From the NCBI GenBank assembly GCA_038061545.1, contig JBBTZE010000087.1:1-31701 (forward strand): a DNA stretch of 31,701 nucleotides. The letters run 5' to 3'. The translations under genes were made by a program, and so were the position numbers. Position 1 is the stretch's first letter, and the number at the start of each line of letters is the position of its first letter. The notes below the pieces were generated by a model. It was not told the origin of the DNA. It made no database searches and saw nothing but the letters and a program-made list of their open reading frames with translations. Positions 15,097 to 31,202 of this stretch are shown here, one piece after another. The DNA is from Patescibacteria group bacterium (lineage in GTDB: Bacteria; Patescibacteriota; Microgenomatia; UBA8517).

Positions 15097-15105
15097 AAAA
15101 TCAAT

Positions 15106-15360: not shown

Positions 15361-15385
15361 ATAATTGAGAATCTAACAAAGAAAC

Positions 15386-15411
15386 AGTACTGTGATTCGA
15401 ATCATAGTACT
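15386..15411. promoter_or_regulatory. Palindromic site downstream of TrpR-like gene 1
   Basis: AGTACTGTGATTCGAATCATAGTACT, 23/26 identical to 15885-15910. Confidence 0.75.
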
Positions 15412-15424
15412 ACATCAGTTTAAA

Positions 15425-15868
15425 TTATAATGGCTCTTCTCGCTTCCACTTTTTTTCGCGTTTAGATTTTTTCCATTCTCCAATATTCGCTCCCTTTGGT
15501 GGAAGTGGAGTTAAAATATCGAGTAGCTCTGACAAGGCTGATTTAGCAACTTTTCTTTTAAGAATGTCTCCCAAGATTTTTTTGTATCCCTTTCCTTGCA
15601 ACGCAAAAACAGCGTGAATTTTTGCAATGGTTCCTTTGCTTACCTTTAAAGTTTTTGAAATCTGAACGTACGTGTATTTATTTTCAAGTAAAAGAAACGC
15701 AACAGCCACTCTTTTAGCCATCATTATTTTTTCAACTGGGGAAAGTAAATCATTCAAGAAATCAACTACTTCGCTTGAACTTTTTGTATTTTTAACAGAT
15801 TCGATAAAAACTCTATAAACCTTTTCTTCGATTACAGGGGACATAAAATGCTTCGAAACCTGTGTCAT
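15425..15868 (-). CDS. TrpR-like (YerC/YecD family) HTH protein, paralog 1
   Basis: FLNDLLSPVEKIMMAKRVAVAFLL...TYVQISKTLKVSKGTIAKI matches the TrpR/YerC pattern. Confidence 0.85.
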   Translation of the reverse strand: MTQVSKHFMSPVIEEKVYRVFIESVKNTKSSSEVVDFLNDLLSPVEKIMMAKRVAVAFLLLENKYTYVQISKTLKVSKGTIAKIHAVFALQGKGYKKILGDILKRKVAKSALSELLDILTPLPPKGANIGEWKKSKREKKWKREEPL

Positions 15869-15883
15869 GTCTTTATATATTTA

Positions 15884-15911
15884 TAGTACCATGATTCGAA
15901 TCATGGTACTA
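15884..15911. promoter_or_regulatory. Perfect 28-bp palindrome overlapping the promoter of TrpR-like gene 1
   Basis: TAGTACCATGATTCGAATCATGGTACTA. The minus strand contains TG-N-TACTAT as an extended -10. Confidence 0.8.
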
Positions 15912-15963
15912 ATTGAGGCTGGAAACAGCAATATCGTAAACACTTTAGATTATTATCGAATAA

Positions 15964-15992
15964 TTGATTTATGAGCAAGGAAAGAGTAATCT
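15964..15992 (+). promoter_or_regulatory. Sigma70 promoter of ORF 16002
   Basis: TTGATT, 17 bp, TAATCT, 9 nt before ATG. Confidence 0.5.
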
Positions 15993-16001
15993 TCACCCAT
16001 T

Positions 16002-16301
16002 ATGGCAAAAATTAGTGCGGAAGGAATCGTTTGTCCAGCGCTTCAGGCAGCTTACGAAAGAGCTATGAAAAAAGCGTTTGATAAAGGACGAATGCCAAAA
16101 AGTAATGTTAGATGGCCTTCCGAATATGGAAACTATGTTTCAGTCAAAGGAGCTTTGGAAGGATCTGATGCTTGTCTAGAATACGGTAAGAAGATTGAAG
16201 TTGATTTACATTTAAATCAGATTAAGGGTGCTCACGATGAGGAAAGGAATCCAATAAAAGTTTCCGGAACAGAATGTAAGAAAAAGGAAGGCAAGAAATA
16301 G
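16002..16301 (+). CDS. Hypothetical protein
   Basis: 99-aa ORF with candidate promoter. No recognised family. Confidence 0.6.
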   Translation: MAKISAEGIVCPALQAAYERAMKKAFDKGRMPKSNVRWPSEYGNYVSVKGALEGSDACLEYGKKIEVDLHLNQIKGAHDEERNPIKVSGTECKKKEGKK

Positions 16302-16307
16302 TAATCA

Positions 16308-16336
16308 TTGAATTAAGCCTCACTCCCTGCTAAAAT
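16308..16336 (+). promoter_or_regulatory. Sigma70 promoter of fusA
   Basis: TTGAAT, 17 bp, TAAAAT with TG-N extension. Confidence 0.7.
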
Positions 16337-16343
16337 CACTCTT

Positions 16344-16424
16344 GTCCTTCGACTTCGCTCAGGATTGTAACTTCTTAATTGTTTAAGATTACTATAGTGG
16401 TGAGCGAACGAAGTGAGTCGAACC
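16344..16424. repeat. Two family A REP-like units in opposite orientation in the fusA 5' UTR
   Basis: GTCCTTCGACTTCGCTCAGGAT (16344-16365) and TGAGCGAACGAAGTGAGTCGAA (16401-16422; reverse complement TTCGACTCACTTCGTTCGCTCA). Confidence 0.6.
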
Positions 16425-18593
16425 ATGGCAGAAGTAGCAAAGAAAAAAGCAAGTATAGTTGTAACGGCAACAAAGGACCGTAATGTTTCCTATGAAAAGA
16501 TCCGTAATATCGGCATTATTGCCCATATTGATGCCGGTAAAACCACAACCACAGAAAGACTTCTTTTTGAGACGGGCCGAACGTATAAGTTAGGATCCGT
16601 CGATGAAGGAACAACCGTTACCGACTGGATGGCCCAAGAAAGAGAACGTGGAATTACAATCGTTTCTGCTGCAATCACCGCTTTTTGGGACTTAAAAAAG
16701 GCCACTTCGGTCGAAGCCGGTCACTACAGAATTAATTTGATTGACACCCCCGGCCACATTGATTTTACAGCAGAAGTTGAACGATCACTCCGCGTTTTAG
16801 ATGGTGCCGTAATGGTTTTTGACGGCAGAACGGGTGTTGAATCCCAATCAGAAACCGTGTGGAGACAGGCAGACAAATATAATGTTCCAAGAATTTGTGT
16901 TCTTAACAAATTGAACCTAATTGGAGCCGATTTTGAGGGTTCATTGGTTTCTATCAAAGACAGGCTTGGTGCCAATGCAGTGCCTGTAATTTACCCAATT
17001 GGCCAGGAGCATGAACACCGTGGAGTAATTGATTTGATAACAATGAAGGCACTTACCTATAAAGATGTTGCCGATGCCGGTTTAACCGAAGGGGAAATCC
17101 CATCAGATCTTCTGGAAGTCGCCAAAAAATACAGAACCGATCTTTTGGAGCGTGCATGTGAGTTTGATGATGAGGCACTGGCCAAGTTTTTGGAAGGCCA
17201 AGAGATTGATGAAGTTACACTTAAAAAAGCAATCAGAAAAGGTGTAATTTCCGGTAAACTTTTCCCAATTTTTGGCGGAGATAATAGAACCGCAGAAGCT
17301 CAGCTTCTTTTGAACGGCGTTGTTGAATATTTGCCTTCCCCAAATGATTTGCCGCCAGTCGAAGGAATTGATCAAAAAACTGGAGAAAAAACTACCCGTG
17401 AGCGCAAAAACGAGGCTCCTTTTTCAGGTTTGGCATTTAAAATCATGACCGATCCGCACGTAGGACGCTTGGTTTATGTCCGTGTTTATTCGGGAAAACT
17501 TTCGGCAGGACAGCAGGTTTATAACTCCACCAAGCAAAAATACGAAAGAATTGGAAAGCTTATTCTTCTTCACGCGGATCAACGTGAGCTTATCGAAGAA
17601 GCCTATGCAGGAGAAATTGTGGCTGTGGTAGGAATTAAAGACACTTCAACCGGGGACACCTTGTGTGATCCTGATCACCAACTTAACCTGGAATCAATCA
17701 GCTTCCCGGAACCTGTTATTTCACTGGCCATTGAACCTGCAACCAAGAGCGACCAGGAGAAAATGGGACTGGCACTTGGCAAGCTTTCCGATGAGGATCC
17801 AACCTTCAGAATTAAGAGTAACCCGGAAACCGGCCAAACCATTATTAGTGGTATGGGGGAACTGCAACTTGAAGTGCTCGTAGACCGCATGAAACGTGAA
17901 TTTGGGGTCGTTGCCACAACCGGAGCACCACAAGTAGCCTACAAAGAAACTATCAAGAAAGAGGGCGTTGGTGAAGGTAAATACATCAGGCAAACCGGAG
18001 GTCGTGGTCAGTACGGACATTGTTTACTTAGGATCGAGCCAATGGGCAGGGGTGAGGGATTTGAATTTAAAAGCGAAATCAAGGGCGGTGCCATTCCACA
18101 GGAATACATTAACCCAATCGAAAAAGGTGTCAAAGAAAAAATGGAGAATGGAATTTTGGCAGGGTTTCCTATCGTTGACATGAAGGTCGCGGTTTACGAT
18201 GGAAGCTATCACGACGTCGATTCTTCAGAAATTGCGTTTAAGATCGCAGGAAGCATGGCCTTGACCGACGCTTTTGGAAAGTCCAGCCCGATTCTTCTTG
18301 AGCCTATCATGAAAGTTGAAGTTTCAACTCCCGACGAATTTATGGGAGACGTGATTGGGGACTTGTCCAGTAAACGCGCCCAAATTTCCGGAAGTGAGAA
18401 GAAGGGAACAATGACAATTATTAATGCTACAACCCCACTTGCTGAGCTTTCAGGATATGCAACCAAATTGAGATCTCTTACTCAAGGGCGTGCATCATAT
18501 TACATGGAGCCATCCCACTACGAAGAAGTTCCAAACAACATTACTCAGGCAATTATTGCCAAAGCAGGCAAGATTGAAATGCCTCGCGGCTAA
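16425..18593 (+). CDS. fusA: Elongation factor G
   Basis: AHIDAGKTT, ERGITI, DTPGHIDF, YHDVDSSE. ATG at 16425 preferred over the GTG inside the repeat. Confidence 0.98.
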   Translation: MAEVAKKKASIVVTATKDRNVSYEKIRNIGIIAHIDAGKTTTTERLLFETGRTYKLGSVDEGTTVTDWMAQERERGITIVSAAITAFWDLKKATSVEAGHYRINLIDTPGHIDFTAEVERSLRVLDGAVMVFDGRTGVESQSETVWRQADKYNVPRICVLNKLNLIGADFEGSLVSIKDRLGANAVPVIYPIGQEHEHRGVIDLITMKALTYKDVADAGLTEGEIPSDLLEVAKKYRTDLLERACEFDDEALAKFLEGQEIDEVTLKKAIRKGVISGKLFPIFGGDNRTAEAQLLLNGVVEYLPSPNDLPPVEGIDQKTGEKTTRERKNEAPFSGLAFKIMTDPHVGRLVYVRVYSGKLSAGQQVYNSTKQKYERIGKLILLHADQRELIEEAYAGEIVAVVGIKDTSTGDTLCDPDHQLNLESISFPEPVISLAIEPATKSDQEKMGLALGKLSDEDPTFRIKSNPETGQTIISGMGELQLEVLVDRMKREFGVVATTGAPQVAYKETIKKEGVGEGKYIRQTGGRGQYGHCLLRIEPMGRGEGFEFKSEIKGGAIPQEYINPIEKGVKEKMENGILAGFPIVDMKVAVYDGSYHDVDSSEIAFKIAGSMALTDAFGKSSPILLEPIMKVEVSTPDEFMGDVIGDLSSKRAQISGSEKKGTMTIINATTPLAELSGYATKLRSLTQGRASYYMEPSHYEEVPNNITQAIIAKAGKIEMPRG

Positions 18594-18599
18594 ACTCCT

Positions 18600-18836
18600 C
18601 TAATTTTCTCTAAATTCCTGTAAATCAGTATATTTGCTGTTTTTGAAGCTGAATTTAAATTTTTTAGTATCTTCCTTAATCCACATTTTTTCTCTCTTTG
18701 TTTTATAGTCTTTTTCATCCACAAAACAATGAGCGTAGATTTCGTTTTTACCACGCTTTTCTTCAAAATAAACTTCGGCCAGTTTTCCGTTTACTTTCCC
18801 AAAACACCACATAGCTGATTTTATCAGATGGGGCAT
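18600..18836 (-). CDS. Small hypothetical protein
   Basis: 78-aa ORF with protein-like composition (WCFGKVNGKLAEVYF...HCFV), convergent with fusA. Confidence 0.65.
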   Translation of the reverse strand: MPHLIKSAMWCFGKVNGKLAEVYFEEKRGKNEIYAHCFVDEKDYKTKREKMWIKEDTKKFKFSFKNSKYTDLQEFREN

Positions 18837-18857
18837 TATCAAGCCAAATATTCAATA

Positions 18858-18886
18858 TTGACACTCCATCTCAAAACAAGTATTTT
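18858..18886 (+). promoter_or_regulatory. Sigma70 promoter, leaderless geometry
   Basis: TTGACA, 17 bp, TATTTT, 6 nt, ATG (18893). Confidence 0.65.
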
Positions 18887-18892
18887 GGCGTA

Positions 18893-19108
18893 ATGGCAGA
18901 TTTAGATTTATCAAATATTACATTCCAAGAACTTAACGAATTATTAGAAAACGGCACCATTACTATGGTACGAGAGGTAGGAACCTCATGGTCTTTGAAG
19001 GCGGGTGAAAAAACAGTAGGCATGGTTAATGCTGATACACTGTTAGGCGAGGCGGTAGTTTCTGTCGGCGGGAGGGAATTGGGTAGATTTGATCCAAATG
19101 AGCGATGA
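18893..19108 (+). CDS. Small hypothetical protein
   Basis: 71-aa ORF with own promoter. No recognised family. Confidence 0.6.
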   Translation: MADLDLSNITFQELNELLENGTITMVREVGTSWSLKAGEKTVGMVNADTLLGEAVVSVGGRELGRFDPNER

Positions 19109-19119
19109 TTGGTATTGTC

Positions 19120-19150
19120 CCCACTTCGCCCAAGGCTTCGCGGGGCAGGC
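19120..19150 (+). repeat. REP-like hairpin family B unit (intergenic)
   Basis: CCCACTTCGCCCAAGGCTTCGCGGGGCAGGC shares the CGCC-(C)AAGGCT core and GGCA(A/G)G tail with the unit at 22508-22537. Confidence 0.55.
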
Positions 19151-19165
19151 ACTCCTTAGTGACTA

Positions 19166-19195
19166 TTGACATAGTCAATTAGCCTCGAATATAAT
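19166..19195 (+). promoter_or_regulatory. Sigma70 promoter of tuf-rpsJ
   Basis: TTGACA, 18 bp, TATAAT. The -35 is overlapped by the palindrome TTGAC-ATA-GTCAA. Confidence 0.8.
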
Positions 19196-19294
19196 ACACT
19201 TACTTGGGGCAGATGGTGCCTCTTGTTTTTTGAGAGTCGAGTTTGTATAATTGCCTCTCTAGTATCTAATATCTGGTCACTAATATCTAATAAT

Positions 19295-20491
19295 ATGGCA
19301 GACGCAAAACAAAAATTTGATAGAACAAAGCCACACGTAAACATTGGTACTATTGGTCACGTTGACCATGGTAAGACCACTTTGACTGCTGCAATTTCTA
19401 CAGTTTTGTCCAAACAACCGGGAAACACCTCAAAAGCTTACAAATTTGACGAGATCGATAATGCTCCTGAGGAAAAAGAAAGAGGAGTTACAATCAACAT
19501 CTCCCACATTGAGTACGAAACCGCAAAAAGACATTATGCCCATATTGACGCCCCGGGGCACGCCGACTACATCAAAAACATGATTACAGGTGCTGCACAA
19601 ATGGACGGTGCAATTCTTGTCATCTCGGCAGCTGATGGGCCCATGCCACAAACCCGTGAGCACGTTATTTTGGCCAGACAGGTCAATGTTCCTTCCATTA
19701 TCGTTTTCCTCAATAAATGCGACACAGTTGATGACCCGGAAATCATTGATTTGGTTGAGGCAGATGTCAGAGAACTCCTTAAGAAATACCAATATCCGGG
19801 AGATGAAGTTCCTGTTATCAGAGGCAGTGCTCTTAAGGCTATGGAAGGCGATGCTGATGCAGAAAAGAAAATCATGGAACTTATGGATGCGGTTGATACA
19901 TACATTCCAACCCCAGTCAGAGACACAGAAAAGCCGTTCCTTATGCCAGTTGAAGATGTATTTACAATCTCCGGACGCGGAACAGTTGTTACAGGTAGGG
20001 TTGAGCGCGGAATAGTTAAGCTTAATGAGGAGCTTGAGATAATTGGACTTAAGGATACTCAAAAAACAGTCGTAACCGGCCTTGAAATGTTCAGAAAGCT
20101 TCTTGATGATGCTCAAGCCGGAGACAATGTTGGAGTACTTATCAGAGGAATTGAGAAAAACCAAGTTGAGCGCGGACAAGTTCTTGCAAAAATAGGAACA
20201 GTCAAAGCTCACACAGAATTTGACGCGGAAGTCTATATTCTTAGCAAAGAAGAGGGTGGGCGTCATACTCCATTCTTCACAGGTTATAAGCCTCAGTTCT
20301 ACATTAGAACTGCAGACGTAACAGGAGAAGCAACTCTTCCTGAGGGAATCGAAATGGTTATGCCTGGGGACAATGCCAAGATGAAAGTTAAGCTTATTGC
20401 CCCGGTGGCCTTGGAAGAAGGACTTAGATTTGCAATCAGAGAAGGCGGGCACACAGTTGGAGCAGGCGTCATTACTAAAGTAACAGCATAA
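19295..20491 (+). CDS. tuf: Elongation factor Tu
   Basis: [27 protein letters not shown]. Start set to ATG at 19295. Confidence 0.99.
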
Positions 20492-20509
20492 TAGGAAAGC
20501 ACATTAAAG

Positions 20510-20818
20510 ATGGCTACAGGAAGACTTAGAGTCAAACTCAAAAGCTACGATCACCGTGTGATCGATGAAGCGGCAGCGAAGATAGTCGATACTGCTTTGG
20601 CTTCCGGTGCAAAAATTATTGGTCCGATTCCTCTCCCCACAAAAAGAACCCTAATGGCAGTCAAAGAAGGTCCTTTTGTAGACAAAGACGCCCAGGAGCA
20701 TTTTGAAATTCTGGTTCATAAACGCCTAATCGATATCATCGACCCCTCCCCCCGCACAGTCGATTCCCTTGGGAATCTAGACCTTCCTGCAGGCGTGTCA
20801 ATCGAAATAAAAATGTAA
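20510..20818 (+). CDS. rpsJ: 30S ribosomal protein S10
   Basis: LRVKLKSYDHR, GPIPLPT, HKRLIDI, LPAGVSIEIKM. Confidence 0.98.
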   Translation: MATGRLRVKLKSYDHRVIDEAAAKIVDTALASGAKIIGPIPLPTKRTLMAVKEGPFVDKDAQEHFEILVHKRLIDIIDPSPRTVDSLGNLDLPAGVSIEIKM

Positions 20819-20947
20819 CGCAAGTTACATTTACTTCTACGCCGAGTGCCCCGTCAAAATCGCTCTTTGAGCCGTGAACGAATAGTTCCCAAAAGGTGAA
20901 AGGTAAGATTGACTGGGGCTGGAGTCAGTATTGAGATTAAGATGTAA
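20789..20947 (+). mobile_element. Putative 129-bp insertion or scar in the rpsJ 3' end with a synonymously recoded duplicate tail
   Basis: 20789-20818 and 20918-20947 both encode AGVSIEIKM-stop in the same frame, at 20/30 nt identity. The spacer is structured. Confidence 0.6.
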
Positions 20948-21067
20948 TTATCCTATAACTCTTGACTTCTTCTTCTTCTTCTTCTGTTAGGATTCCCCCA
21001 GCTTGCACATTTTGGCTTAAAAAGACAAATTTTTCTATTCTAACGATGATGATGAAGAGGAGATAAA

Positions 21068-21406
21068 ATGAACCGTTTAATTCGTGTTGAAAGCCATCCG
21101 AACAGCCGTGTTCGTGATTTTCATATCAACCGCGTGGTTTCTCAGTCAGTAATTGAACATTTCATGCGCCCTTTGCGGGATAGCTCAGAGAGCTATCTTA
21201 CAAAAGTTGGTGATCCAGGCGCAGAAGTTGTCCGTTCACTTATGCGTCTTCCGGGCGTCACTGAGATTTTCATCAAACCCTATGAGATAGGTGTTCATAT
21301 CTCTGAGGTTCATGACTGGGATTCTCTGGAGCCGAGCGTACTTCGGGTACTTTGCACCAAAGTGTTCGGCACAGATCCCGACGACGTTCAGATCGAACAC
21401 AAGTAA
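21068..21406 (+). CDS. Stand-alone NifU/Nfu N-terminal-like domain protein
   Basis: ESHPN...LMRLPGVTEIFIKPYEIGV...DWDSLEPSV resembles the Nfu_N pattern. GAGGAG RBS upstream. Confidence 0.65.
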   Translation: MNRLIRVESHPNSRVRDFHINRVVSQSVIEHFMRPLRDSSESYLTKVGDPGAEVVRSLMRLPGVTEIFIKPYEIGVHISEVHDWDSLEPSVLRVLCTKVFGTDPDDVQIEHK

Positions 21407-21427
21407 AGAGCCTTTGCCAAAATGCGC

Positions 21428-21490
21428 AAGACTGGCCTAGCGCTAATGATAATAGAGGATTTCCTCTTTTTGAAATTAGTGCTAGGTCTT
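21428..21490 (+). terminator. Long hairpin after the Nfu_N-like gene
   Basis: CCTAGCGCTAAT pairs with ATTAGTGCTAGG around an inner AGAGG/CCTCT stem. T-rich tail. Confidence 0.5.
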
Positions 21491-21509
21491 TCTTGTTTTA
21501 TGAGGCTGA

Positions 21510-21538
21510 TTGACCTTGTTGCAATATTAAGATATAAT
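21510..21538 (+). promoter_or_regulatory. Sigma70 promoter of the rplC operon
   Basis: TTGACC, 17 bp, TATAAT. Confidence 0.85.
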
Positions 21539-21544
21539 GCGTCT

Positions 21545-21681
21545 ATGACATCCAATGTGGATGGCTGTCAGCGCGTAAGCGCTGTCATAACAAGAAGTGG
21601 ATAGACTAAAAACAACTACCACAATTAGTAGTCTTTGAAGGAATCTTCTTTTTGAAGCGCCTTTCAGAGGCGCTTTTTTTT
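21545..21681 (+). promoter_or_regulatory. Structured rplC leader ending in an intrinsic terminator (attenuator candidate)
   Basis: Stems CATCCA/TGGATG, CAGCGC-GTAA-GCGCTG, GACTA/TAGTC, then AAGCGCCT-TTCAG-AGGCGCTT plus a T run before rplC. Confidence 0.65.
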
Positions 21682-21688
21682 GTTTAAT

Positions 21689-21720
21689 GTCCCTCGACTC
21701 TTTTGAGATCGTTCGGGATC
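21689..21720 (+). repeat. Degenerate family A-like hairpin
   Basis: GTCCCTCGACTCTTTTGAGATCGTTCGGGATC; TCGAC core with a TCCC/GGGA closing stem. Confidence 0.4.
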
Positions 21721-21730
21721 CAGAACAAAT

Positions 21731-22573
21731 ATGAATTTAAATACAATACTCGGTTCAAAAAGTGGCATCAGCCAGACCTTCGTCAATGGTTTACGGATTC
21801 CGTCCACCAAAGTTGTGGCTGGTCCATGCGTGGTCACAGGAATTAAAAGTATGGATAAGGACGGTTACTGGGCAATTCAGTTAGGTTTCGGGAGTAGAAC
21901 TTCAAAAAATATTTCAAGAGCTGTAAAAGGTCATTTAAAACACTTTCTGGCAAAGCCAGATCCTGCTCTGTCTGGCACAGCCAGACCTAGCTCTGCAAGG
22001 CAGGACAAAAGCACTCAGCTTCAAAATTACCCCAAGCATATACGCGAAATTAGAGTCGATTCTGCGCCAGAGTTCAAAGTCGGAGACGTAATTACACTCT
22101 CCGATATTTTTTCTGTTGGAGATCTTATTTCAGTAACTGGGATCAGTAAAGGAAAAGGCCATGCCGGAGTTGTTAAAAGACATCACTTTAGGGGGGGACC
22201 AAAGACTCACGGACAATCAGATCGCCACAGAGCTCCAGGATCAATCGGACAAACAACAACTCCGGGACGCGTTTACAAAGGGAAAAGGATGGCAGGAAGA
22301 ATGGGTGGGGAAACCGTGACAATCAAAAATGTCCATGTAATTGGAATCGATAAAGAAAAAAACGAAATGTTAATTTCTTCACCAATTCCGGGAGCCCCAA
22401 ACGCAATTTTGACAATAATTAAGCTTGCCGCAGGGTCTTTGGCCGACCTTGAACACGAAGTTGAGGCAGTAGTAATTGAAGAGGCACCGGCAGAACCAGC
22501 CTCCGCTCCAGCCGACGCCAAGGCTATGGCTGGCAAGGAAGCTACGGCGAACCAAGGGGAAGTTAAAGAATAA
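21731..22573 (+). CDS. rplC: 50S ribosomal protein L3 with two hairpin-derived insertions
   Basis: GYWAIQLGFG, SKGKGHAGVVKRH, THGQSDRHRAPGSIG, KRMAGRMG. Confidence 0.97.
   Translation: MNLNTILGSKSGISQTFVNGLRIPSTKVVAGPCVVTGIKSMDKDGYWAIQLGFGSRTSKNISRAVKGHLKHFLAKPDPALSGTARPSSARQDKSTQLQNYPKHIREIRVDSAPEFKVGDVITLSDIFSVGDLISVTGISKGKGHAGVVKRHHFRGGPKTHGQSDRHRAPGSIGQTTTPGRVYKGKRMAGRMGGETVTIKNVHVIGIDKEKNEMLISSPIPGAPNAILTIIKLAAGSLADLEHEVEAVVIEEAPAEPASAPADAKAMAGKEATANQGEVKE
21955..22005 (+). repeat. In-frame tandem/hairpin insertion in rplC
   Basis: Two 25-bp units (17/25 identical) containing the hairpin GTCTGGC-ACA-GCCAGAC. Confidence 0.55.
22497..22556 (+). repeat. Nested family B hairpins in the rplC 3' extension
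   Basis: Outer GCCTCCGCT...GAAGCTACGGCG interrupted by the 30-bp inner CCAGCCGACGCCAAGGCTATGGCTGGCAAG. Confidence 0.65.
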
Positions 22574-22575
22574 TC

Positions 22576-23465: not shown

Positions 23466-23528
23466 GATAGCATCAGATGCATCTCACGGGATCCCGTTAG
23501 ATGCTCTGAAAGAGCTATCTAACTGGGA
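23456..23528. repeat. 73-bp double-hairpin element, copy 1
   Basis: 70/73 identical to 26573-26645. Supplies the rplW stop codon. Confidence 0.9.
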
Positions 23529-23538
23529 AAAAAATAAT

Positions 23539-24300
23539 ATGCACAAACTAAAAAGAATACTAAAAAATAAAGCCGGAAGAAGACTTGGAAGAGTCTCCGT
23601 TCGCCATCAAGGTGGCCGCGAAAAAAGGCAATTACGCTTAATCGACTTTAAAAGAAACAAGCTTGAAGTTTGGGCAAGAGTTGAGGTCATTGAATACGAT
23701 CCAAACAGAAACGCCGAGATTGCGTTAGTCGTATACGTTGACGGAGAAAGAAGGTATATTTTAGCCCCCGTTGGGCTTAAAATGGGAGATCGCGTGGTGA
23801 GCTCTGAAAGCGCGCCAATTGAGCCCGGTAACACCCTTCCCTTGAGCGCGATTCCGGTTGGAACTCAAATTCATAATATTGAAATTAGGCTCGGAAAAGG
23901 TGGACAGGTAGTTAAAAGCGCAGGCTCATTTGCAGTTATTTTTGGAAGAGAAGAAGAATACGTTTTGGTTAAACTTCCATCAGGGGAAATTAGGAGATTT
24001 AATCCAAAGGCCTATGCCTCAATCGGACAAGTTGGCAATGTTGAGCATAAAAATGAAATTATCGGAAAAGCCGGAAGAAGAAGGCACATGGGAGTGCGTC
24101 CAACTGTAAGAGGAGTTGCCCAACATCCTGATTCCCATCCACACGGTGGAGGAGAAGGCAGATCTGGAGTCGGTATGAAGCATCCAAAGACTGTTTACGG
24201 TAAAAGTGCCGTTGGAAACACCCGAAACAAAATGAAATATTCCAATCGCTTGATTGCTCAAAAAAGAAAGGGAGCAAAAGGAGTAGTAGCCAGTAAATAA
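23539..24300 (+). CDS. rplB: 50S ribosomal protein L2 (short N-terminus)
   Basis: [31 protein letters not shown]. Start moved to ATG 23539 because the upstream in-frame part is the 73-bp repeat. Confidence 0.97.
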
Positions 24301-24302
24301 AT

Positions 24303-24584
24303 ATGTCACGATCAAATAAAAAGGGACCATACGTTGACCCAATCTTAGTTAAAAAGATTGAAAAAGGTATGGGGACAAAAGAAAACCCAATCAAAACTTG
24401 GTCAAGGGGTTCCCAAATCGCGCCTAGTTTTGTGGGTAAATATTTCCAAATCCACAACGGTCGCATCTTTATTGACGTATTTATAACTGAAGATATGGTT
24501 GGTCACAGACTCGGCGAGTTTGCTGCAACCCGCACATTCAGAGGACATGGAGAAATTGTAAAGAGAACACAGGACAAGACCTAA
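24303..24584 (+). CDS. rpsS: 30S ribosomal protein S19
   Basis: [23 protein letters not shown]. Confidence 0.97.
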
Positions 24585-24588
24585 CATT

Positions 24589-24951
24589 ATGGAAAAAACA
24601 TACATCAGTACACAAAAATATTTGATAACAAGCCCAAGAAAATTGAGACTAGTGGCCGTTATGGTCAAAAAGTTAAAGCCGGTAACTGCAATTGAACAAA
24701 TGCCTTTTATCGCAAAGCGCGCATCCGAGCCACTGCTTAAAGTAATTAAAACAGCAGTTGCTAATGCAAGGAATCTTGGAGCATCCGATACCGATTTAAT
24801 TTTCAAAGAAATTCAAATTGGTGAAGGACCAAGACTTAAGCGCGGAAGAGCGGCAAGCAGAGGACGCTGGCACCCATATGCAAAGAGAATGTCACACATA
24901 AGAGTAGTTCTAACAACAAAAGCAAAAATCAAAAATGGGACAAAAAGTTAA
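24589..24951 (+). CDS. rplV: 50S ribosomal protein L22
   Basis: SPRKLRLV, AVANA, GPRLKR, KRMSHI. Confidence 0.96.
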   Translation: MEKTYISTQKYLITSPRKLRLVAVMVKKLKPVTAIEQMPFIAKRASEPLLKVIKTAVANARNLGASDTDLIFKEIQIGEGPRLKRGRAASRGRWHPYAKRMSHIRVVLTTKAKIKNGTKS

Positions 24952-25591
24952 TCCAATCGGCATAAGAATAGGAACATTTTTACCTTGGAGATCAAGGTGG
25001 TTTTCCGACTCTGCAACATTTAAGGATTTCTTACTTGAGGACATTAAAATAAGACGTGGACTTACGGAAAAGCTAAAGCTTGCAGGAGTAACGGGAGTAG
25101 AAATCGAAAGACTTCCAAAAAGTTTGGTAATTGTGATTACAGTTTCAAGGCCGGGTGTGGTTATTGGTAGGGGAGGCTCAGGAATTGAAGACGTCAAAAA
25201 GTTTGTTCTTGAGATCATCAAAAAAGTCCGCGGCAAGAATCTTAAGGATGTTAAGATTGATATTCGTATTAACGAGGTCAAAAATCCCGAAATTTCGGCC
25301 CAACTTGTGGCAGAAAGAATAGTGTCCGAAATGGAAAGAAGAATTCCCCACAGACGCGCAGTTACAAAAGCGATCGAAAGAGTTATGAGCTCGGGTGCTA
25401 ATGGGATTAAAGTTACCTTAAGCGGACGCGTGGGCGGTGCCGAAACTTCAAGAACAGAAAAGTTCAAAGCAGGTTCGGTTCCAACACAAACCTTAAGAGA
25501 AAGTATCGATTATGCACAGGTTCCCGCAGCTTTAAAAAGAGGATATGTCGGAGTCAAAGTCTGGGTGCATAAGAAGGGGGAAAGCCAGTAA
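24935..25591 (+). CDS. rpsC: 30S ribosomal protein S3
   Basis: MGQKVNPIG, SRPGVVIGRGG, GIKVTLSGRVGGAE. Confidence 0.97.
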   Translation: MGQKVNPIGIRIGTFLPWRSRWFSDSATFKDFLLEDIKIRRGLTEKLKLAGVTGVEIERLPKSLVIVITVSRPGVVIGRGGSGIEDVKKFVLEIIKKVRGKNLKDVKIDIRINEVKNPEISAQLVAERIVSEMERRIPHRRAVTKAIERVMSSGANGIKVTLSGRVGGAETSRTEKFKAGSVPTQTLRESIDYAQVPAALKRGYVGVKVWVHKKGESQ

Positions 25592-25667
25592 TTAGTAAAT
25601 AGCCATTAGATATTAGTAAAAACTAATGTCTAAGCTAATAACTAACTACTAATCGCTAATTACTAAA
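25589..25667. repeat. AT-rich degenerate palindrome of ATTAG/CTAAT units
   Basis: Three ATTAG motifs followed by several CTAAT/CTAA motifs around a central ATTAGT-AAAA-ACTAAT. Confidence 0.5.
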
Positions 25668-25669
25668 CT

Positions 25670-26086
25670 ATGTTACAACCAAAAAGAAGAAAATATATAA
25701 AAGAGTTTAGAGGAAGAAGAAGGGGTTTGGCCACCCGCGGCAATACTTTGGCTTTTGGTGACTTTGGTCTTAAAGCCCAGGAAGTTGCTTGGGTGACATC
25801 GGCACAGATTGAGGCTGCCAGACGCGCAGCCACACACGCTCTTAAAAAAGGTGGAAGAGTTTGGATCAGGATTTTCCCGGATAAACCAATTACCAGCCGT
25901 CCCGCGGGAAAGCGAATGGGAAGCGGAAAAGGTGAAATTTCAACTTATGTGGCTGTTGTTAAACCGGGTGCCATTATGTTTGAGATTGCCGGGGCAACTG
26001 CGGATGTTGTCAAAATTGCATTTCATAAAGCCGCAGCAAAGTTGCCAATTGCCACCAAAATAGTAAGTAGGGAAAACAGTTCCTGA
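25670..26086 (+). CDS. rplP: 50S ribosomal protein L16
   Basis: MLQPKRRKY, QIEAARRA, WIRIFPDKP, RMGSGKG. Confidence 0.97.
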   Translation: MLQPKRRKYIKEFRGRRRGLATRGNTLAFGDFGLKAQEVAWVTSAQIEAARRAATHALKKGGRVWIRIFPDKPITSRPAGKRMGSGKGEISTYVAVVKPGAIMFEIAGATADVVKIAFHKAAAKLPIATKIVSRENSS

Positions 26087-26128
26087 AATAGGCGTAGCAT
26101 ATTGTTACGTAACAAGTTCAGGATGACA
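26081..26128. repeat. CCTGAA/TTCAGG hairpin element with internal insert
   Basis: TCCTGAAA...ACAAGTTCAGGATGAC. Contains the rplP stop and the perfect palindrome TTGTTACGTAACAA. Confidence 0.55.
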
Positions 26129-26132
26129 TAAA

Positions 26133-26333
26133 ATGAAGACAAAAGAATTTAAAGATTTAAAAGGTAAAAAAATAGAGGATTTGGCAAAGTTGATTGTAGC
26201 CAAAAAGCTTGAGCATGCCAAAGCAAAGGCCAAAATGGCACAAGGAAACGAGAAAAATCTTAAACTGGCCAAGAATTTAAGGCTGGATATTGCTAGAATA
26301 GCAACTCTGATTACAGAAAAATCATTTATATGA
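26133..26333 (+). CDS. rpmC: 50S ribosomal protein L29
   Basis: 66 aa, LRLDIARIAT, and operon position. Confidence 0.9.
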   Translation: MKTKEFKDLKGKKIEDLAKLIVAKKLEHAKAKAKMAQGNEKNLKLAKNLRLDIARIATLITEKSFI

Positions 26334-26587
26334 AAATATTTATCGGACGCGTCATTAGTACAAAACGGTTGAAAACCGCTACTGTCACAGTGGAAAATAT
26401 TGTTATTCATCCTTTATACAAGAAAAGATTCAGAAGACTAAGGAAATATTCAGTACACGACGATAAGGGGGTAAAAGTAGGGGACACGGTCAAATTCATA
26501 ACAACCAGGCCATATTCAAAAACAGTCAGATGGGCAATCACCGAGATTGTAGAGAACAAGAATAAAAAGAAAGTCCCAGTGAGATAG
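26330..26587 (+). CDS. rpsQ: 30S ribosomal protein S17
   Basis: GRVIS, HPLYKKR, VGDTV, RPYSKTVRW. Confidence 0.95.
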   Translation: MKIFIGRVISTKRLKTATVTVENIVIHPLYKKRFRRLRKYSVHDDKGVKVGDTVKFITTRPYSKTVRWAITEIVENKNKKKVPVR

Positions 26588-26645
26588 CATAAAATGCATC
26601 TCACGGGATCCCGTTAGATGCTCTGAAAGAGCTATCTAACTGGGA
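26573..26645. repeat. 73-bp double-hairpin element, copy 2
   Basis: 70/73 identical to 23456-23528. Supplies the rpsQ stop codon. Confidence 0.9.
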
Positions 26646-26667
26646 GAGGAATGATAAATAAAAAAAT

Positions 26668-27033
26668 ATGTTGCAATTAAGAAGCATGATAACGCCAGCC
26701 GATAATAGTGGAGCCAAGAAACTCATGATTATTGGTGTTCCCGGAAGAATTGGGAAAGTAGCCTCTTTGGGACAAGTAGTTCTTTGTGTAGTCAGAGGTG
26801 CCGATTCAGGAGGAGTTTTGGCGGATCACGAAAAAGTTAACGTTTTGATCGTAAGAACAAGAAAAGAAGTTGGAAGAAAAGACGGAACCTACATTCGTTT
26901 TGACGATAACGCGGGAGTTGTTATTGATAAACAAGGATTACCCCGTGGAACCCGAGTTTTGGGGCCCGTAGCCCGTGAAGTTAAAGAAGTTGGATACAAC
27001 AAAATTGCATCACTTGCCAGAGAAGTCGTGTAA
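26668..27033 (+). CDS. rplN: 50S ribosomal protein L14
   Basis: ADNSGAK, IRFDDNAGV, GTRVLGPVARE, KIASLAREV. Confidence 0.97.
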   Translation: MLQLRSMITPADNSGAKKLMIIGVPGRIGKVASLGQVVLCVVRGADSGGVLADHEKVNVLIVRTRKEVGRKDGTYIRFDDNAGVVIDKQGLPRGTRVLGPVAREVKEVGYNKIASLAREVV

Positions 27034-27037
27034 GTCA

Positions 27038-27060
27038 GATCCTGAAATGAATTCAGGAAT
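27038..27060. repeat. CCTGAA/TTCAGG hairpin element, short form
   Basis: TCCTGAA-ATGAA-TTCAGGA just after the rplN stop. Confidence 0.55.
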
Positions 27061-27066
27061 AAATAT

Positions 27067-27372
27067 ATGTTGAAATTTAAAACAGGGGACACAGTAAAAG
27101 TAACAGCAGGAAAAAGCAAAGGTTTTGAGGGTAAAATTGAAAAAATTAACCCTGAAAATATGACGGCTATTGTGCCTGGTGCCAATCTTTACAAAAGAGC
27201 CATTAAAACTCAAGGAGATGTAAAAGGCGGAATGTACGATATTCCAAGAGCGCTCTCATTTGGCAAAATTGCAGTAATTTGCCCAAAATGTAAAAAAATG
27301 ACCAGAATTGGGTTTAAATTCGCGGGTGACGAAAAGATCCGGATTTGTAGAAAGTGCGGAAAGGAAATCTAA
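27067..27372 (+). CDS. rplX: 50S ribosomal protein L24 (with CxxC/CxxC tail)
   Basis: GDTVKVTAGKSKG KOW motif, CPKC...TRIG...CRKC. Confidence 0.95.
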   Translation: MLKFKTGDTVKVTAGKSKGFEGKIEKINPENMTAIVPGANLYKRAIKTQGDVKGGMYDIPRALSFGKIAVICPKCKKMTRIGFKFAGDEKIRICRKCGKEI

Positions 27373-27376
27373 CTTT

Positions 27377-27934
27377 ATGACAAAATCAAGATTACAAGAA
27401 AAATACGAAAAAGAAATTAAAAAGACTCTGGCTTCCGAGTTTGCCATCAAAAACACAATGGCGACTCCAAAACTTGTCAAAGTTGTTATTAATATGGGAG
27501 TAGGAAATGTGGCCAAAAACGAGAAGGGTTTAGCCGATCTCAAACGTGACTTTGCACTTGTTGCGGGACAGATGCCATCCGTACGTGCCGCAAAAGTTTC
27601 AATCGCATCCTTTGGCCTTCGTGCCGGAATGCCGGTTGGATTATCCGTTACATTAAGAGGAGGACATATGTATTCGTTCCTGGACAGGCTCTTTTCTGTT
27701 ACACTTCCACGTCTCCGCGATTTCAGGGGAGTAACGGCCTCCAGCTTTGATAAACAAGGAAATTACACATTGGGCTTAACCGAGCACACGGTATTCCCTG
27801 AGATTGATATAAGCAAATCCGCCCCCGCACATGGAATGGAAATTACGGTTGTAACAACCGCCGGAAACATCGAAAGATCCAAGAGATTGCTTGAGTTACT
27901 TGGATGCCCTTTTGAGAAGGGAGAACAAAAATGA
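27377..27934 (+). CDS. rplE: 50S ribosomal protein L5
   Basis: [37 protein letters not shown] at 27377. Confidence 0.97.
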
Positions 27935-28116
27935 GCACAACAGCAAAAGAAGTAAGAGAATCAAAGAAATTAAAATTTTCGGTGCGGTACAGAAACAGAT
28001 GCCGTCTTTGCGGACGTGGCCGAGGCTACATGAGAAAATTCGGACTTTGTAGATTATGCTTTAGGGAACATGCCATGCGCGGCGAAATCCCGGGAGTTAG
28101 AAAGGCCAGTTGGTAA
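27931..28116 (+). CDS. rpsN: 30S ribosomal protein S14, zinc-binding type
   Basis: 61 aa, RCRLCGR...[16 protein letters not shown]. Confidence 0.97.
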
Positions 28117-28118
28117 TC

Positions 28119-28136
28119 AATATAAGCGAAGCTTGA
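28119..28136 (+). repeat. 18-bp repeat with GCGAAGC mini-hairpin, copy 2
   Basis: Identical to 2474-2491. Confidence 0.7.
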
Positions 28137-28146
28137 AATATACATT

Positions 28147-28539
28147 ATGAAAAAACTAACCAGAACAAATTATTCAATCGGTGACTTTTTGATAAGAATC
28201 AAAAATGCAGGCATGGCCGGAAACAAAGAGGTTGTGGCCGTTACTAACACTAAAGTTGCAGCTCTTGCCAACACCTTAAAGAAAATGAGAATTTTGGATA
28301 CTGTAGCCGTCAAGGATGGGCTTATTACAGTAACCCTAGCATTCCAAGACAAAAAGCCGGTACTAATGGACCTCCGGCTTGTAAGTAAGCCCGGACTCAG
28401 GATTTACATGACAATAGCAGATATTGAAGCCAAGCGCGGACCATCAACATTTGTGATCTCTACGCCAAAGGGCGTACTATCGTCTAAAGAAGCCAAAAAA
28501 CTAAGAGTAGGCGGAGAAGTAATCGCAGAAATCTGGTAG
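28147..28539 (+). CDS. rpsH: 30S ribosomal protein S8
   Basis: IGDFLIRIKNA, VSKPGLRIY, ISTPKGV, GGEVIAEIW. Confidence 0.96.
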   Translation: MKKLTRTNYSIGDFLIRIKNAGMAGNKEVVAVTNTKVAALANTLKKMRILDTVAVKDGLITVTLAFQDKKPVLMDLRLVSKPGLRIYMTIADIEAKRGPSTFVISTPKGVLSSKEAKKLRVGGEVIAEIW

Positions 28540-28555
28540 TTCGGTTTCACTCACT

Positions 28556-29104
28556 ATGTCAAAAATCGGAAAACAACCAATCTTAATTCCAACAGACACA
28601 ACCGTCACAGCCACCGGCCAGGAGGTTGCCGTTAAAGGGCCAAAAGGGGAGCTTGTTAGGACTTTTCCAAGAGAGGTTGAAGTAAAGGTTGAGGAGGGGA
28701 ATGTTCTAGTAACCAGAAAAGGCAATAGTAAAACCTCCCTTACAATGCACGGAACCTGGAGATCCCTGATCAATAATATGGTAATTGGAGTTAGCAAAGG
28801 CTGGGTAAAACAACTTGAGCTTGTAGGAACCGGGTTTAGGGCAGATACAACAGGAAAATCCCTAAACCTAATCGTTGGTTACTCACATACTGTCAAAATT
28901 GAGGCACCCGAGGGCATAAATTTTAAAGTAGAAAAAATGATAATTACAGTTGAGGGAATAGACAAAGAAGTAGTGGGGCAAGTGGCCTCCGACATTAGAG
29001 CAGTAAGGCCCCCTGAGCCTTATAAAGGTAAGGGAGTAAAATACACAGACGAAGTTATAAGAAGGAAAGCAGGTAAAGCAGCCGCAAAGGCAACAACAGC
29101 TTAA
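28556..29104 (+). CDS. rplF: 50S ribosomal protein L6
   Basis: [28 protein letters not shown]. Confidence 0.97.
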
Positions 29105-29130
29105 ATAATATAGAAAGGAAACAAACAACA

Positions 29131-29484
29131 GTGAAAACCGAGAACATAAAGCAAAAAAGATACGATCAAAGAAAAAGAAGAGTCAGGGCCAAGATTTCGG
29201 GTAATGCCGCTAGGCCCAGACTTTCGGTTTACAGGTCCCTAAAGCATATTTATGCTCAAATCATAGATGATGACAAAGGGATAACTTTAGTCGCATCAAG
29301 CGACCTAACGGTAAAAGGCAAAAACAAAAAATTAGATTCAGCATCTTTGGTGGGGGAAGATTTAGCCAAAAAAGCAATTACAAAGAAAATTAAAAAAGTA
29401 GCTTTTGATAAAGGCGCATCACGTTTTCATGGTAGAGTAAAAGCTTTGGCAGAAGGAGCCAGAAAAGGAGGGCTCGATTTTTAA
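29131..29484 (+). CDS. rplR: 50S ribosomal protein L18
   Basis: [36 protein letters not shown] start. Confidence 0.96.
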
Positions 29485-29497
29485 TTGATTTACTAAT

Positions 29498-30031
29498 ATG
29501 GGAAGAAATTTTAACAGACAACAAACAGGTTACACACCAGCTGTAAAGGAATTTGAGGAAACAGTTGTTCAAATCAACAGAATTACCAAAAAAACTAAAG
29601 GTGGAAATCAAATGAGATTTTCCGCTCTTGTTGTAATTGGTGACAGAAAAGGAAAAGTGGGAGTAGGAATTGAAAAAGCAAAAGATGTAAGAAGTGCTAT
29701 TCAAAAAGCAATTGCATCTGCAAAGCGTAAGATTATTACAATCACACTTTCCGGTACCACTATCCCCTACTCTGTATTCGAAAAATTCTCAGCTGCAAAA
29801 GTTATGTTAAAACCTGCTCCTCCGGGATCCGGAATTATCGCAGGGGGACCAATGAGAGTAGTACTGGAATCAGCCGGAGTTCGTGACGTTTCAGGAAAGA
29901 TTTTGGGAACCAAAAACAAAATTAGTAATGTCTATGCAACCTTAAAAGCACTTGAGACAATTACCTATATGGACAAAGTTAAAAAGGCCAGAAAATTGGA
30001 TAAGCAAAGCTTGCCATCAGATGGTAAATAA
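29498..30031 (+). CDS. rpsE: 30S ribosomal protein S5
   Basis: KTKGGNQMRFSALVVIGD, PAPPGSGIIAGG. Confidence 0.97.
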   Translation: MGRNFNRQQTGYTPAVKEFEETVVQINRITKKTKGGNQMRFSALVVIGDRKGKVGVGIEKAKDVRSAIQKAIASAKRKIITITLSGTTIPYSVFEKFSAAKVMLKPAPPGSGIIAGGPMRVVLESAGVRDVSGKILGTKNKISNVYATLKALETITYMDKVKKARKLDKQSLPSDGK

Positions 30032-30032
30032 T

Positions 30033-30440
30033 ATGAACTTACAAAAAACAGTAGCAAAAGGTAAAAAGAGATTAGGCAGAGGATACGGTTCTGGTAAAGG
30101 GGGCCACACATCTTCTCGTGGGCAAAAAGGACAAAAAGCAAGAACACATATTGGAATAATGTTTGAGGGAATGAAGATGAAAAAGTCCCTCATCAAACGC
30201 CTTCCATTCCAAAGAGGGAAAGGAAAAAATCATGCATATCCAAAGCCTTTGATTGTCAAAACGTCTAAACTTGCAGGACTTAAAGCAGAAACAAAAGTCA
30301 CAATCGATCTTTTGGTAAAAGAAGGAATAGTCGATGCCAAAATGGCCAAAATGTATGGAGTAAAAGTTTTGAAAGATGTGGAGTTAAAAAACAAATTAGT
30401 CTTCGAAGTCCCTACTTCCAAATCAGTAGTTTCCAAATAA
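30033..30440 (+). CDS. rplO: 50S ribosomal protein L15
   Basis: KRLGRGYGSGKG, RGQKGQKAR, RLPFQRG. ATG at 30033; no rpmD between rpsE and rplO. Confidence 0.95.
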   Translation: MNLQKTVAKGKKRLGRGYGSGKGGHTSSRGQKGQKARTHIGIMFEGMKMKKSLIKRLPFQRGKGKNHAYPKPLIVKTSKLAGLKAETKVTIDLLVKEGIVDAKMAKMYGVKVLKDVELKNKLVFEVPTSKSVVSK

Positions 30441-30529
30441 TTTTCCAAAAACCTCCCCACCATTTTTTGCTCCCATTCCCTTCTTTCCAGTATAAAAATA
30501 AATATAATATTTAAACCTCTTTTCAACGG

Positions 30530-30557
30530 TGCTACACTGATACATAGCACTGTAGCA
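30530..30557. promoter_or_regulatory. Palindromic site upstream of TrpR-like gene 2, overlapping its promoter
   Basis: TGCTACACTGATACATAGCACTGTAGCA. TTTAAA (30510-30515), 17 bp, TACACT (30533-30538) with TG-N. Confidence 0.75.
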
Positions 30558-30559
30558 AC

Positions 30560-31108
30560 ATGGCAAAGATAAAGGGGAGAACTTACTACGAGAGGTCAAA
30601 AAGACCTGAAAAGATTGGGAGAGATGAACAATTAGCGTTGATGTTTGATTTAATTAATGCGTTTAGTTTAGTTAAAACTCCTACAGAAACAGCACTTCTT
30701 TTGAAAGACTTGCTTACAGCCAAGGAAATTAAAAATTTATCCAAAAGATTAAGAATTGCCAAACTTTTATTAAATGAAGTTACAGAAAGAGAAATTGCAG
30801 AAGAACTACACTGCAGTTTTGCAACGATCTCAAAAGTAAATATTTGGTTAAGCGAAGGCGGAGAGGGCTTAAGGAATGTAATTTCTAAACTTCCTGCAAA
30901 ATATAAAATTCCAGTGAATTTACCGAGAGTTCCGCTTGAATTCCAAATTCCAAAATTGATTTTAACTTTAGCAACAAACTCCAAAGCTATTGATCAGAAA
31001 GAACTATTGGAAAACTTTGCCAGAGGAGTCACTTCAAAAGAGTATTCAGACAAGACTTTGCAGGAGGAGTCTGATCTTCATTATCAGTCTAAAAAGAAAC
31101 CCTCCTAA
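30560..31108 (+). CDS. TrpR-like (YerC/YecD family) HTH protein, paralog 2
   Basis: LLKDLLTAKEIKNLSKRLRIAKLL...TEREIAEELHCSFATISKV. Confidence 0.85.
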   Translation: MAKIKGRTYYERSKRPEKIGRDEQLALMFDLINAFSLVKTPTETALLLKDLLTAKEIKNLSKRLRIAKLLLNEVTEREIAEELHCSFATISKVNIWLSEGGEGLRNVISKLPAKYKIPVNLPRVPLEFQIPKLILTLATNSKAIDQKELLENFARGVTSKEYSDKTLQEESDLHYQSKKKPS

Positions 31109-31112
31109 CTTC

Positions 31113-31138
31113 GCTACAGTGATACGTAGCACTGTAGC
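31113..31138. promoter_or_regulatory. Palindromic site downstream of TrpR-like gene 2
   Basis: GCTACAGTGATACGTAGCACTGTAGC, 24/26 identical to 30531-30556 in direct orientation. Confidence 0.75.
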
Positions 31139-31202
31139 AAATAGAATTGATTTATTAATAAAATTAAGTGCGCATGGGAATTTGGTGAGATTTTGCCAAC
31201 AA

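Follow-up and report, generated by a model that had tools for sequence, protein, structure and literature searches.

Putative autoregulated TrpR/YerC-like repressors with a private palindrome at both ends of the gene in a Patescibacteria (Microgenomatia) genome

In phage lambda, the CI repressor gene lies between two operator regions (OR and OL), one over its own promoter and one distal, which serve joint autoregulation; the operators are triple and 2.3 kb apart, and CI octamerises. On Acinetobacter plasmids, pdif sites with common XerC and XerD arms flank modules in inverted C/D-D/C order, and these modules move between plasmids. In the TrpR/YerC family, TrpR and HisR (YerC) recognise palindromic 20-bp boxes, and autoregulation is frequent (PMC9413887). 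The present study concerns a DNA stretch of 31,701 nucleotides (the window), which is the entire 31.7-kb contig C87 (JBBTZE010000087.1) of a Patescibacteria group bacterium of the Microgenomatia (UBA8517; assembly GCA_038061545.1, hereafter G000; 543 kb, 105 contigs, 86% complete), and in particular two of its genes, A and B, which encode TrpR/YerC-family proteins and each lie between two copies of a palindrome. The original prediction, made from the letters of the window, had described a site-gene-site arrangement with sites of 26-28 bp in two paralogs, and the peptides and arms were indeed recovered at the places it gave. Comparison with 40 genomes of the same order or class and 23 further GTDB species (labels G, C, and L denote the genomes, contigs, and loci compared with G000, respectively) suggests that A and B are likely autoregulated TrpR/YerC repressors with a private operator at the promoter and at the gene end and with few further sites.

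Compared with HisR (B. subtilis YerC) and E. coli TrpR (PDB 3KOR, 3FRW, 3G1C, and 1TRO), the proteins belong to the same PF01371 family, have the same fold, and are predicted to form the same intertwined dimer; palindromic operators with a lineage-specific consensus are likewise found there, and family members commonly have a site at the promoter of their own gene (PMC9413887). HisR and TrpR, however, fall short of 100-110 aa and act through a 20-bp box ahead of amino-acid genes, whereas the proteins here are 143-193 aa long, carry a basic C-terminal extension, and have sites of 26-30 bp, a second copy stands just past the stop codon, and 7-14 paralogs per genome have a private site each. As with lambda CI, a putative repressor gene lies between operators, but the sites are single and ~0.5 kb apart, no higher oligomer is predicted, and the fold is another. 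The resemblance to pdif consists in a length of ~26-28 bp, a parsable arm-spacer-arm structure, and the bounding of a single gene, whereas the arms here are paralog-specific, most pairs are in direct orientation, and the units occupy syntenic chromosomal loci. Repetitive extragenic palindromes (REP) and their associated tyrosine transposases (RAYT, Y1/IS200-like) also combine a gene between cognate palindromes with copies elsewhere and vertical inheritance, but here there is no HUH/Y1 domain, the extra copies are few (REP: tens to hundreds) and several are intragenic, and the upstream copy is linked to a promoter. A literature search returned for the TrpR/YerC family only work on HisR, nothing on the candidate phyla radiation (CPR), and no paper on a bracketed-operator unit. 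What is new here is the family-wide architecture of bracketing operators together with a strong paralog expansion, TrpR-family autorepressors themselves being known.

For every open reading frame (ORF) of at least 90 aa, a flank score was computed as the best ungapped match between the upstream and downstream flanks, and a matched shared segment scoring at least 15 was taken as the two-site layout. G000 encodes seven TrpR/YerC-like paralogs (A, B, and five more found by tblastn), and the layout was present in all five testable long paralogs (143-182 aa), with scores of 19.5-23 and a different site for each. The paralogs on C12, C51, and C78 (start codons corrected) each had their own palindrome at both flanks, all different; the C45 paralog is cut by the contig end with its downstream copy present, and the 110-aa paralog on C26 showed no flanking palindrome. 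The predicted paralogous regulator modules, each with a private palindrome on both flanks, are supported. In the matched control of 435 G000 genes, which leaves out two RAYT-like genes, the threshold was reached by 6 (1.4%), with a median of 8.5 and a 99th percentile of 16. Across Microgenomatia, 54 of 64 long-subfamily loci (those with sufficient flank, duplicates removed) scored at least 15, and among short-subfamily (~118 aa, YerC-like) genes from relatives none of 13 did (range 7-10). The two-site layout is far above chance, and double flanking, the rarity of which among homologs the original prediction had named as a ground for giving up its account, proved to be the rule in the long subfamilies.

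Counted at no more than six mismatches, each site type has 3-4 copies in G000, i.e., 1-2 beyond the flanking pair (A-type and B-type 4 each), and the six paralogs with sites have six different arm sequences. A homologues were detected in 34 of the 40 relatives, with 1 to 14 matches per genome and the maximum in a sister genus. In the B subfamily, the distance from the end of the upstream copy to the start codon is usually 0-16 nt, the copy overlapping the start in L051 and L058; in the A subfamily, this distance is 6-50 nt. The downstream copy starts mostly between -10 and +10 nt from the stop codon; both copies are palindromes of equal quality. The basic C-terminal tail is confined to the subfamilies with long sites and two copies. 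In a survey of gene orientation (crude ORF calling; 8 of the 46 loci are the A locus itself), TrpR-like genes were opposite to both neighbours in 19/46 loci vs 11% of gene triplets in G000, and convergent with the downstream neighbour in 28/46 vs 27%, suggesting that they tend to be transcription units of their own and that convergent 3' ends often enclose the downstream copy.

The family assignment rests on several lines of evidence. All seven paralogs tested, including those on C78, C12, C51, and C26, exceeded the PF01371 cut-off of 27 bits. Among the NCBIfam models, gene A failed both TIGR02531 (YerC/YecD; 28.5 vs a cut-off of 42.2) and TIGR01321 (TrpR; 23.5 vs 67.25), and gene B passed TIGR02531 marginally (43.4 vs 42.2) and failed TIGR01321 (33.3 vs 67.25); A and B are thus treated as relatives of the characterised regulators and not as equivalogs. 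The A-subfamily profile matched 3G1C, 3FRW, and 3KOR (E 5e-14 to 3e-12) and E. coli TrpR (3e-4) over residues 9-107, and residues 108-147 form an additional basic helical tail of ~40 aa beyond the TrpR-like core. The AlphaFold2 model of A is all-helical, with seven helices and a pLDDT of 80, and the top 42 Foldseek matches in the PDB were all TrpR or YerC-like (TMt 0.62-0.81). Membership in the TrpR/YerC family and the fold are therefore established for A and B. A dimer is predicted: a four-copy fold gave a TrpR-type dimer interface with an ipSAE of 0.76 vs 0.03 for the best control, a value that may reflect memory of solved TrpR dimers, with residues 6-58, 73-75, and 87-102 of A in the interface. 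In addition, the Arg of a conserved (K/Q)R motif aligns with YerC-like structures. A further difference from HisR and TrpR is that trpA and hisA/F had no match over the cut-off in the 86%-complete G000, which argues that A and B are not trp or his regulators, as had been proposed. A likeness of the N-terminal MxQVSK motif to the RVST motif of serine recombinases was considered and dropped, the helices beginning at residue 11 and leaving no room for a catalytic domain.

Both units stand in ribosomal surroundings (Table 1), in agreement with the original prediction. Gene A lies antisense within the rpsG-fusA slot, and its upstream palindrome extends to 28 bp when read as 15884-15911. The downstream A-type copy is identical to the upstream one at 23/26 positions and sits between the convergent 3' ends of an ORF at 15106-15360 and gene A; the recognition helix of A reads VSKGTIAKI. 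The upstream site is presumed to be an autoregulatory operator. The slot itself is variable, the rpsG-fusA gap ranging from 15 bp to >1.5 kb among 30 relatives of the order; in a sister genus (L080, G024:C16, 2232-3142), the gap holds an antisense pair of a PIN-domain toxin and an antitoxin-like gene. Gene B, of a longer subfamily, follows directly after rplO, the true start of which is probably internal to the ORF listed. The B-type copies are identical at 24/26 positions, with an asymmetric centre the same way round in both, and the protein has the recognition helix CSFATISKV and a C-terminal extension of ~70 aa. B adjoins rplO in G000, G019, and L109, with secY following the B unit in the latter two, and 32 further related loci of the B subfamily were found in GTDB species of Woese-, Davies-, Levy-, and Roizmanbacteria.

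Table 1. Positions of the two units and of the adjoining genes in the window
Feature	Position	Strand	Remark
rpsG (S7)	14617-15096	+	NCBIfam TIGR01029; upstream border of the A slot
A-type downstream site, AGTACTGTGATTCGAATCATAGTACT	15386-15411		dyad 12/13; 13 nt beyond the gene A stop
Gene A, TrpR/YerC family, 147 aa	15425-15868	-	PF01371, 46.8 bits
A-type upstream site, halves AGTACCATGATTC and GAATCATGGTACT	15885-15910		perfect 26-bp palindrome; 16 nt before ATG
fusA (EF-G)	16413-18593	+	NCBIfam TIGR00484; downstream border of the A slot
rplO (L15), last ribosomal gene ahead of B	29952-30440	+	NCBIfam TIGR01071, 5e-19, 68.5 bits, under the 77.95-bit cut-off
B-type upstream site, GCTACACTGATACATAGCACTGTAGC	30531-30556		ends 3 nt before ATG
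Gene B, TrpR/YerC family, longer subfamily, 182 aa	30560-31108	+	PF01371, 58.9 bits
B-type downstream site, GCTACAGTGATACGTAGCACTGTAGC	31113-31138		begins 4 nt beyond the gene B stop

An operator role of the upstream copies has support at homologous loci. A TTGAC[AT] motif was found no more than 22 nt upstream of the upstream copy in 11/41 loci and of the downstream copy in 0/41, and at L055, L056, L111, L127, and L128 a spacer of 17-18 nt places the -10 element within the palindrome. A -35-like element ahead of the site with a -10 element inside the palindrome is the geometry of promoter occlusion, and from these homologous loci only we infer a promoter overlap for the A upstream site. Moreover, site similarity rose with similarity of the helix-turn-helix (HTH) region (rho 0.32 overall, 0.45 and 0.49 within subfamilies), a correlation that 0/2000 label permutations reached, these permutations ignoring relatedness, and that exceeded the correlation of the remaining protein with the site. 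All eight pairs with an HTH identity of at least 75% had a site identity of at least 79%. Among A orthologues, the outer arms alternate between GTACCATG and GTTC(G/A)A(T/C)G, and the two copies of L209, an A orthologue, differ at several outer-arm positions with a dyad of 14/14 upstream and 10/14 downstream. Copies that diverge yet keep dyad symmetry are better explained by a symmetric dimer that binds them than by copying alone.

Solo copies of the sites were detected at other genes of G000. One A-type solo precedes a comM-like ATPase gene by 40 nt and the other lies within a tRNA-synthetase-like coding sequence (probably metG), the B-type solos overlap the dtd stop codon and stand between a divergent methyltransferase gene and an AAA gene, and a C12-type and a C51-type solo lie within uvrC and recX, respectively. 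The original prediction had named identical sites before many unrelated genes, as in an ordinary regulon, as another ground for giving up its account, and sites of the same types do occur at unrelated genes. Aligned with 19 orthologues, the recX copy stays in register without an indel, YHISIYDS replacing VHESLFPD; an origin by insertion was ruled out here, the codons being replaced one for one. Between G000 and G019, which belong to two genera, 9/9 codons of the recX copy are identical vs 59% codon identity at other conserved residues, and in uvrC, where the copy sits in a loop of variable length, 8/9 codons are identical vs 52% at conserved residues elsewhere. By this conservation across genera, the recX and uvrC copies, two of the three intragenic ones, are kept at the DNA level, which fits functional binding sites and not empty attachment sites. 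Relatives have 5-7 extra copies of a common core with different outer arms near unrelated genes, also within folD and ksgA; the ksgA site of G022 has the common ATGATTCGAATCAT core (an A-like inner core with different outer arms). On C37 (L001), a 15-kb contig running recA-recX-rny ... comM-dtd, solos of three paralog types occur at 4060-4085, 11454-11479, and 13523-13548, and further solos are in uvrC and beside an AAA (RuvB_N-like) gene; a link of solo sites to genes for DNA recombination or uptake is possible, and the grouping may be chance. Upstream of the alaS region of G019 (L067, C9, 1400-1600), ~110 extra bases with an A-type solo were seen that are absent at 330-380 of the window.

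These observations lead us to favour autoregulation from two operators. A and B would be dimeric repressors from a lineage-specific expansion, each paralog recognising a private dyad-symmetric site of 26-30 bp. The upstream copy would lie over or just downstream of the gene's own promoter, so that the bound protein would repress its own gene (negative autoregulation). The second copy, ~0-30 nt from the stop codon, would be an auxiliary operator, which may raise local repressor occupancy by cooperative binding or by looping over ~460-660 bp, and may also block incoming RNA polymerase and thus insulate a small gene from read-through or convergent transcription in a compact genome. The 1-2 further copies per paralog at other genes would make up a small regulon or serve as roadblocks, binding may depend on a ligand, and the basic C-terminal tail may give extra DNA contacts or bridging.

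Several results weigh against this reading. A consensus promoter scan on the gene strand found no promoter at either upstream site of the window, so that the claim of a first site over the promoter has support from homologous loci only. The identical helix core SFATISKV pairs with different sites in L045 and L048, and a near-identical half-site is common to proteins with just 32-36% HTH identity (one A-like, the others B-like); with such exceptions, and with permutations that ignore relatedness, the predicted co-variation of recognition helix and site holds as a statistical trend and not as a simple code. The four-copy fold showed no C-terminal or tetramer contact, leaving looping without structural support, which is not evidence against a tetramer or bridging. 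Intergenic solos are not conserved between genera, as seen at comM and alaS, and the G000 neighbours of solo sites (comM, dtd, and AAA) had no same-type sites in G022, G013, or G019, and no common regulon was detected among these genomes. In addition, among loci with asymmetric sites and a clear margin, the copies are direct in ~17 vs inverted in 5; a symmetric dimer does not require direct orientation, and this bias hints at gene conversion or recombination between copies. Finally, G019 has an extra unit of one B-type site and ksgA between rplO and B, which is in neither G000 nor L109 and looks cassette-like; in this region (L170, G019:C7, 1497-2453), the ksgA gene (rRNA adenine dimethylase) is on the minus strand with a B-type site on each side, and ksgA was not found in the incomplete G000 assembly.

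Recombination therefore has to be weighed in two forms. The palindromes could also be protein-marked points of recombination or gene conversion at which units of a site and a gene are gained, lost, or moved, a notion kept alive by the predominant direct orientation, the flipped centres of L127 and L128, the G019 unit, and the relocated A homologue of G019; we regard it as doubtful, and equally doubtful is its extension, in which a recombination activity of the host would take its site specificity from the TrpR-like protein and operator-bounded cassettes would be a new kind in the CPR. The account preferred by the original prediction was of selfish minimal cassettes, bounded by direct dif/pdif- or attC-type sites and spread by a trans-acting tyrosine recombinase of Xer type, with solos as empty attachment sites. 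It would explain why the sites hug the coding sequence at both ends, usually within 0-16 nt, and why direct orientation predominates where asymmetry exists; solo copies elsewhere, the G019 unit in the rplO-B junction, the variable rpsG-fusA slot with its toxin-antitoxin pair in G024, the presence of the closest A homologues of G019 and G002 at other loci, a paralog number of 1 to 14, and the tyrosine recombinases encoded in G000 on C54 and C62 also agree with it. Tyrosine recombinases are, however, present in most bacteria, and the window has none, as had been noted together with its lack of trp genes. The arms differ in every paralog of G000, so that a single XerCD pair could not read them, and the proposed 11-6-11 dif layout gives way in A-type sites to dyad symmetry through the centre, without an asymmetric 6-bp spacer; C51- and C12-type sites are likewise symmetric through the centre, and B-type sites have an asymmetric centre of 4-8 nt. 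Furthermore, eight A orthologues (90, 80, 78, 77, 64, 63, 60, and 42% identity) from two families are all antisense between rpsG and fusA, and 8/10 of the closest A homologues examined are at this locus, the exceptions being those of G019 (54%) and G002 (46%). Gene order and sequence divergence thus show gene A to be vertically inherited, and the loci are largely so, an outcome that the original prediction had itself listed as contrary to its view. The recX and uvrC solos are products of substitution or are in register, and their conservation extends across genera, which also opposes empty attachment sites; the protein is an all-helical HTH protein without a catalytic domain. No reproducible target duplication was found; contigs of four groundwater studies gave no credible excision joint and the occupied form only (a weak test, the contigs being assembled), and the viral contigs searched held no relative. 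Spread of such cassettes by an Xer-type recombinase is unlikely.

The remaining alternatives concern what the palindromes are. Selfish or domesticated palindromes of the REP/RAYT kind, with the flanked gene as a dedicated binder that maintains or spreads them, have a genuine counterpart in G000, where RAYT-like Y1 genes and REP-like palindromes are caught by the same metric, and every TrpR paralog does come with a palindrome family of its own, further members of which lie at other places. These further copies number only 1-2 per type in G000, though, half of them within coding regions and built by substitution, the protein has no HUH/Y1 nuclease fold, and the upstream copy is tied to promoter elements, making this explanation quite improbable. 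Alternatively, the palindromes could work as RNA hairpins instead of DNA operators, the 5' stem masking the start codon and the 3' stem terminating or stabilising the transcript; the abutting or overlapping of the start codon by the upstream copy in the B subfamily (L051 and L058) and a T-rich run after the A downstream copy on the gene strand would suit this. Mismatches within the palindromes on the sense strand, however, comprised 12 G.T vs 14 A.C upstream and 19 G.T vs 20 A.C downstream, with many transversions, so that no excess of G.U-compatible mismatches was detected. Dyad symmetry reaches the very centre of the site, being kept at the central 4-6 nt, which are unable to pair in a hairpin, and a terminator scan found none at any of the four window sites. 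With TTGACA, the predicted start falls inside the palindrome, so that the 5' stem would not be transcribed whole, and a generic hairpin needs no paralog-specific sequence. Hairpins in place of operators are hardly credible.

Two candidate traces of mobility at unit A were rejected. An 8-bp direct repeat outside the unit, TAATTGAG, had been considered a target-site duplication, but it was reached by 19/300 shuffles and is absent from orthologous loci. One joint skipping unit A (14982 to 16464) had 26-nt sides and was best explained by other organisms. As for the recombinase on C62 (1762-3552, minus strand), its PF00589 match falls into two parts ~1.2 kb apart within one open frame of 738 aa, which may reflect an inserted domain or an intein.

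Other repeats were noted in G000. Two IS200/Y1-type (RAYT-like) genes, C67:3351-4031 and C96:2038-2724 (both minus strand; L141 and L142), matched PF01797 and are each flanked by a REP-like palindrome, CTTTAAAGGCC(A/T)GGCCTTTAAAG, of which at least seven dispersed copies exist (C8, C29, C34, C52, C67, C77, and C96); together they look like a REP/RAYT system in a CPR genome. These genes scored high in the unmatched scan, and the flank score therefore picks up a known gene-between-own-palindromes system in G000. A 26-bp palindrome unrelated to the TrpR-type sites, GCATCTCACGGGATCCCGTTAGATGC, has three identical copies (23479-23504 and 26596-26621 in the window and C89:6867-6892), two of them within the ribosomal-protein gene cluster, and ~8 diverged copies elsewhere. 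Moreover, thyX (C89:3517-4470) and a NUDIX gene (C97:180-737) have direct repeats of ~25 nt at both flanks, which are not palindromes of the TrpR type.

To our knowledge, almost nothing is known of transcriptional control in CPR/Patescibacteria, and a large share of the regulators in genomes of 0.5-1.2 Mb appears to come from a single expanded TrpR/YerC-like family. The putative binding site of such a regulator can be read from both ends of its own gene, and the resulting pairs of protein and cognate site, in dozens of natural variants, could serve regulon mapping in uncultured bacteria, the study of how HTH specificity diverges after duplication, and the design of orthogonal repressor-operator parts. 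The copy at the stop codon and the copies within essential genes (recX, uvrC, and metG) point to regulation by roadblock or looping, a mode that may typify very compact genomes.

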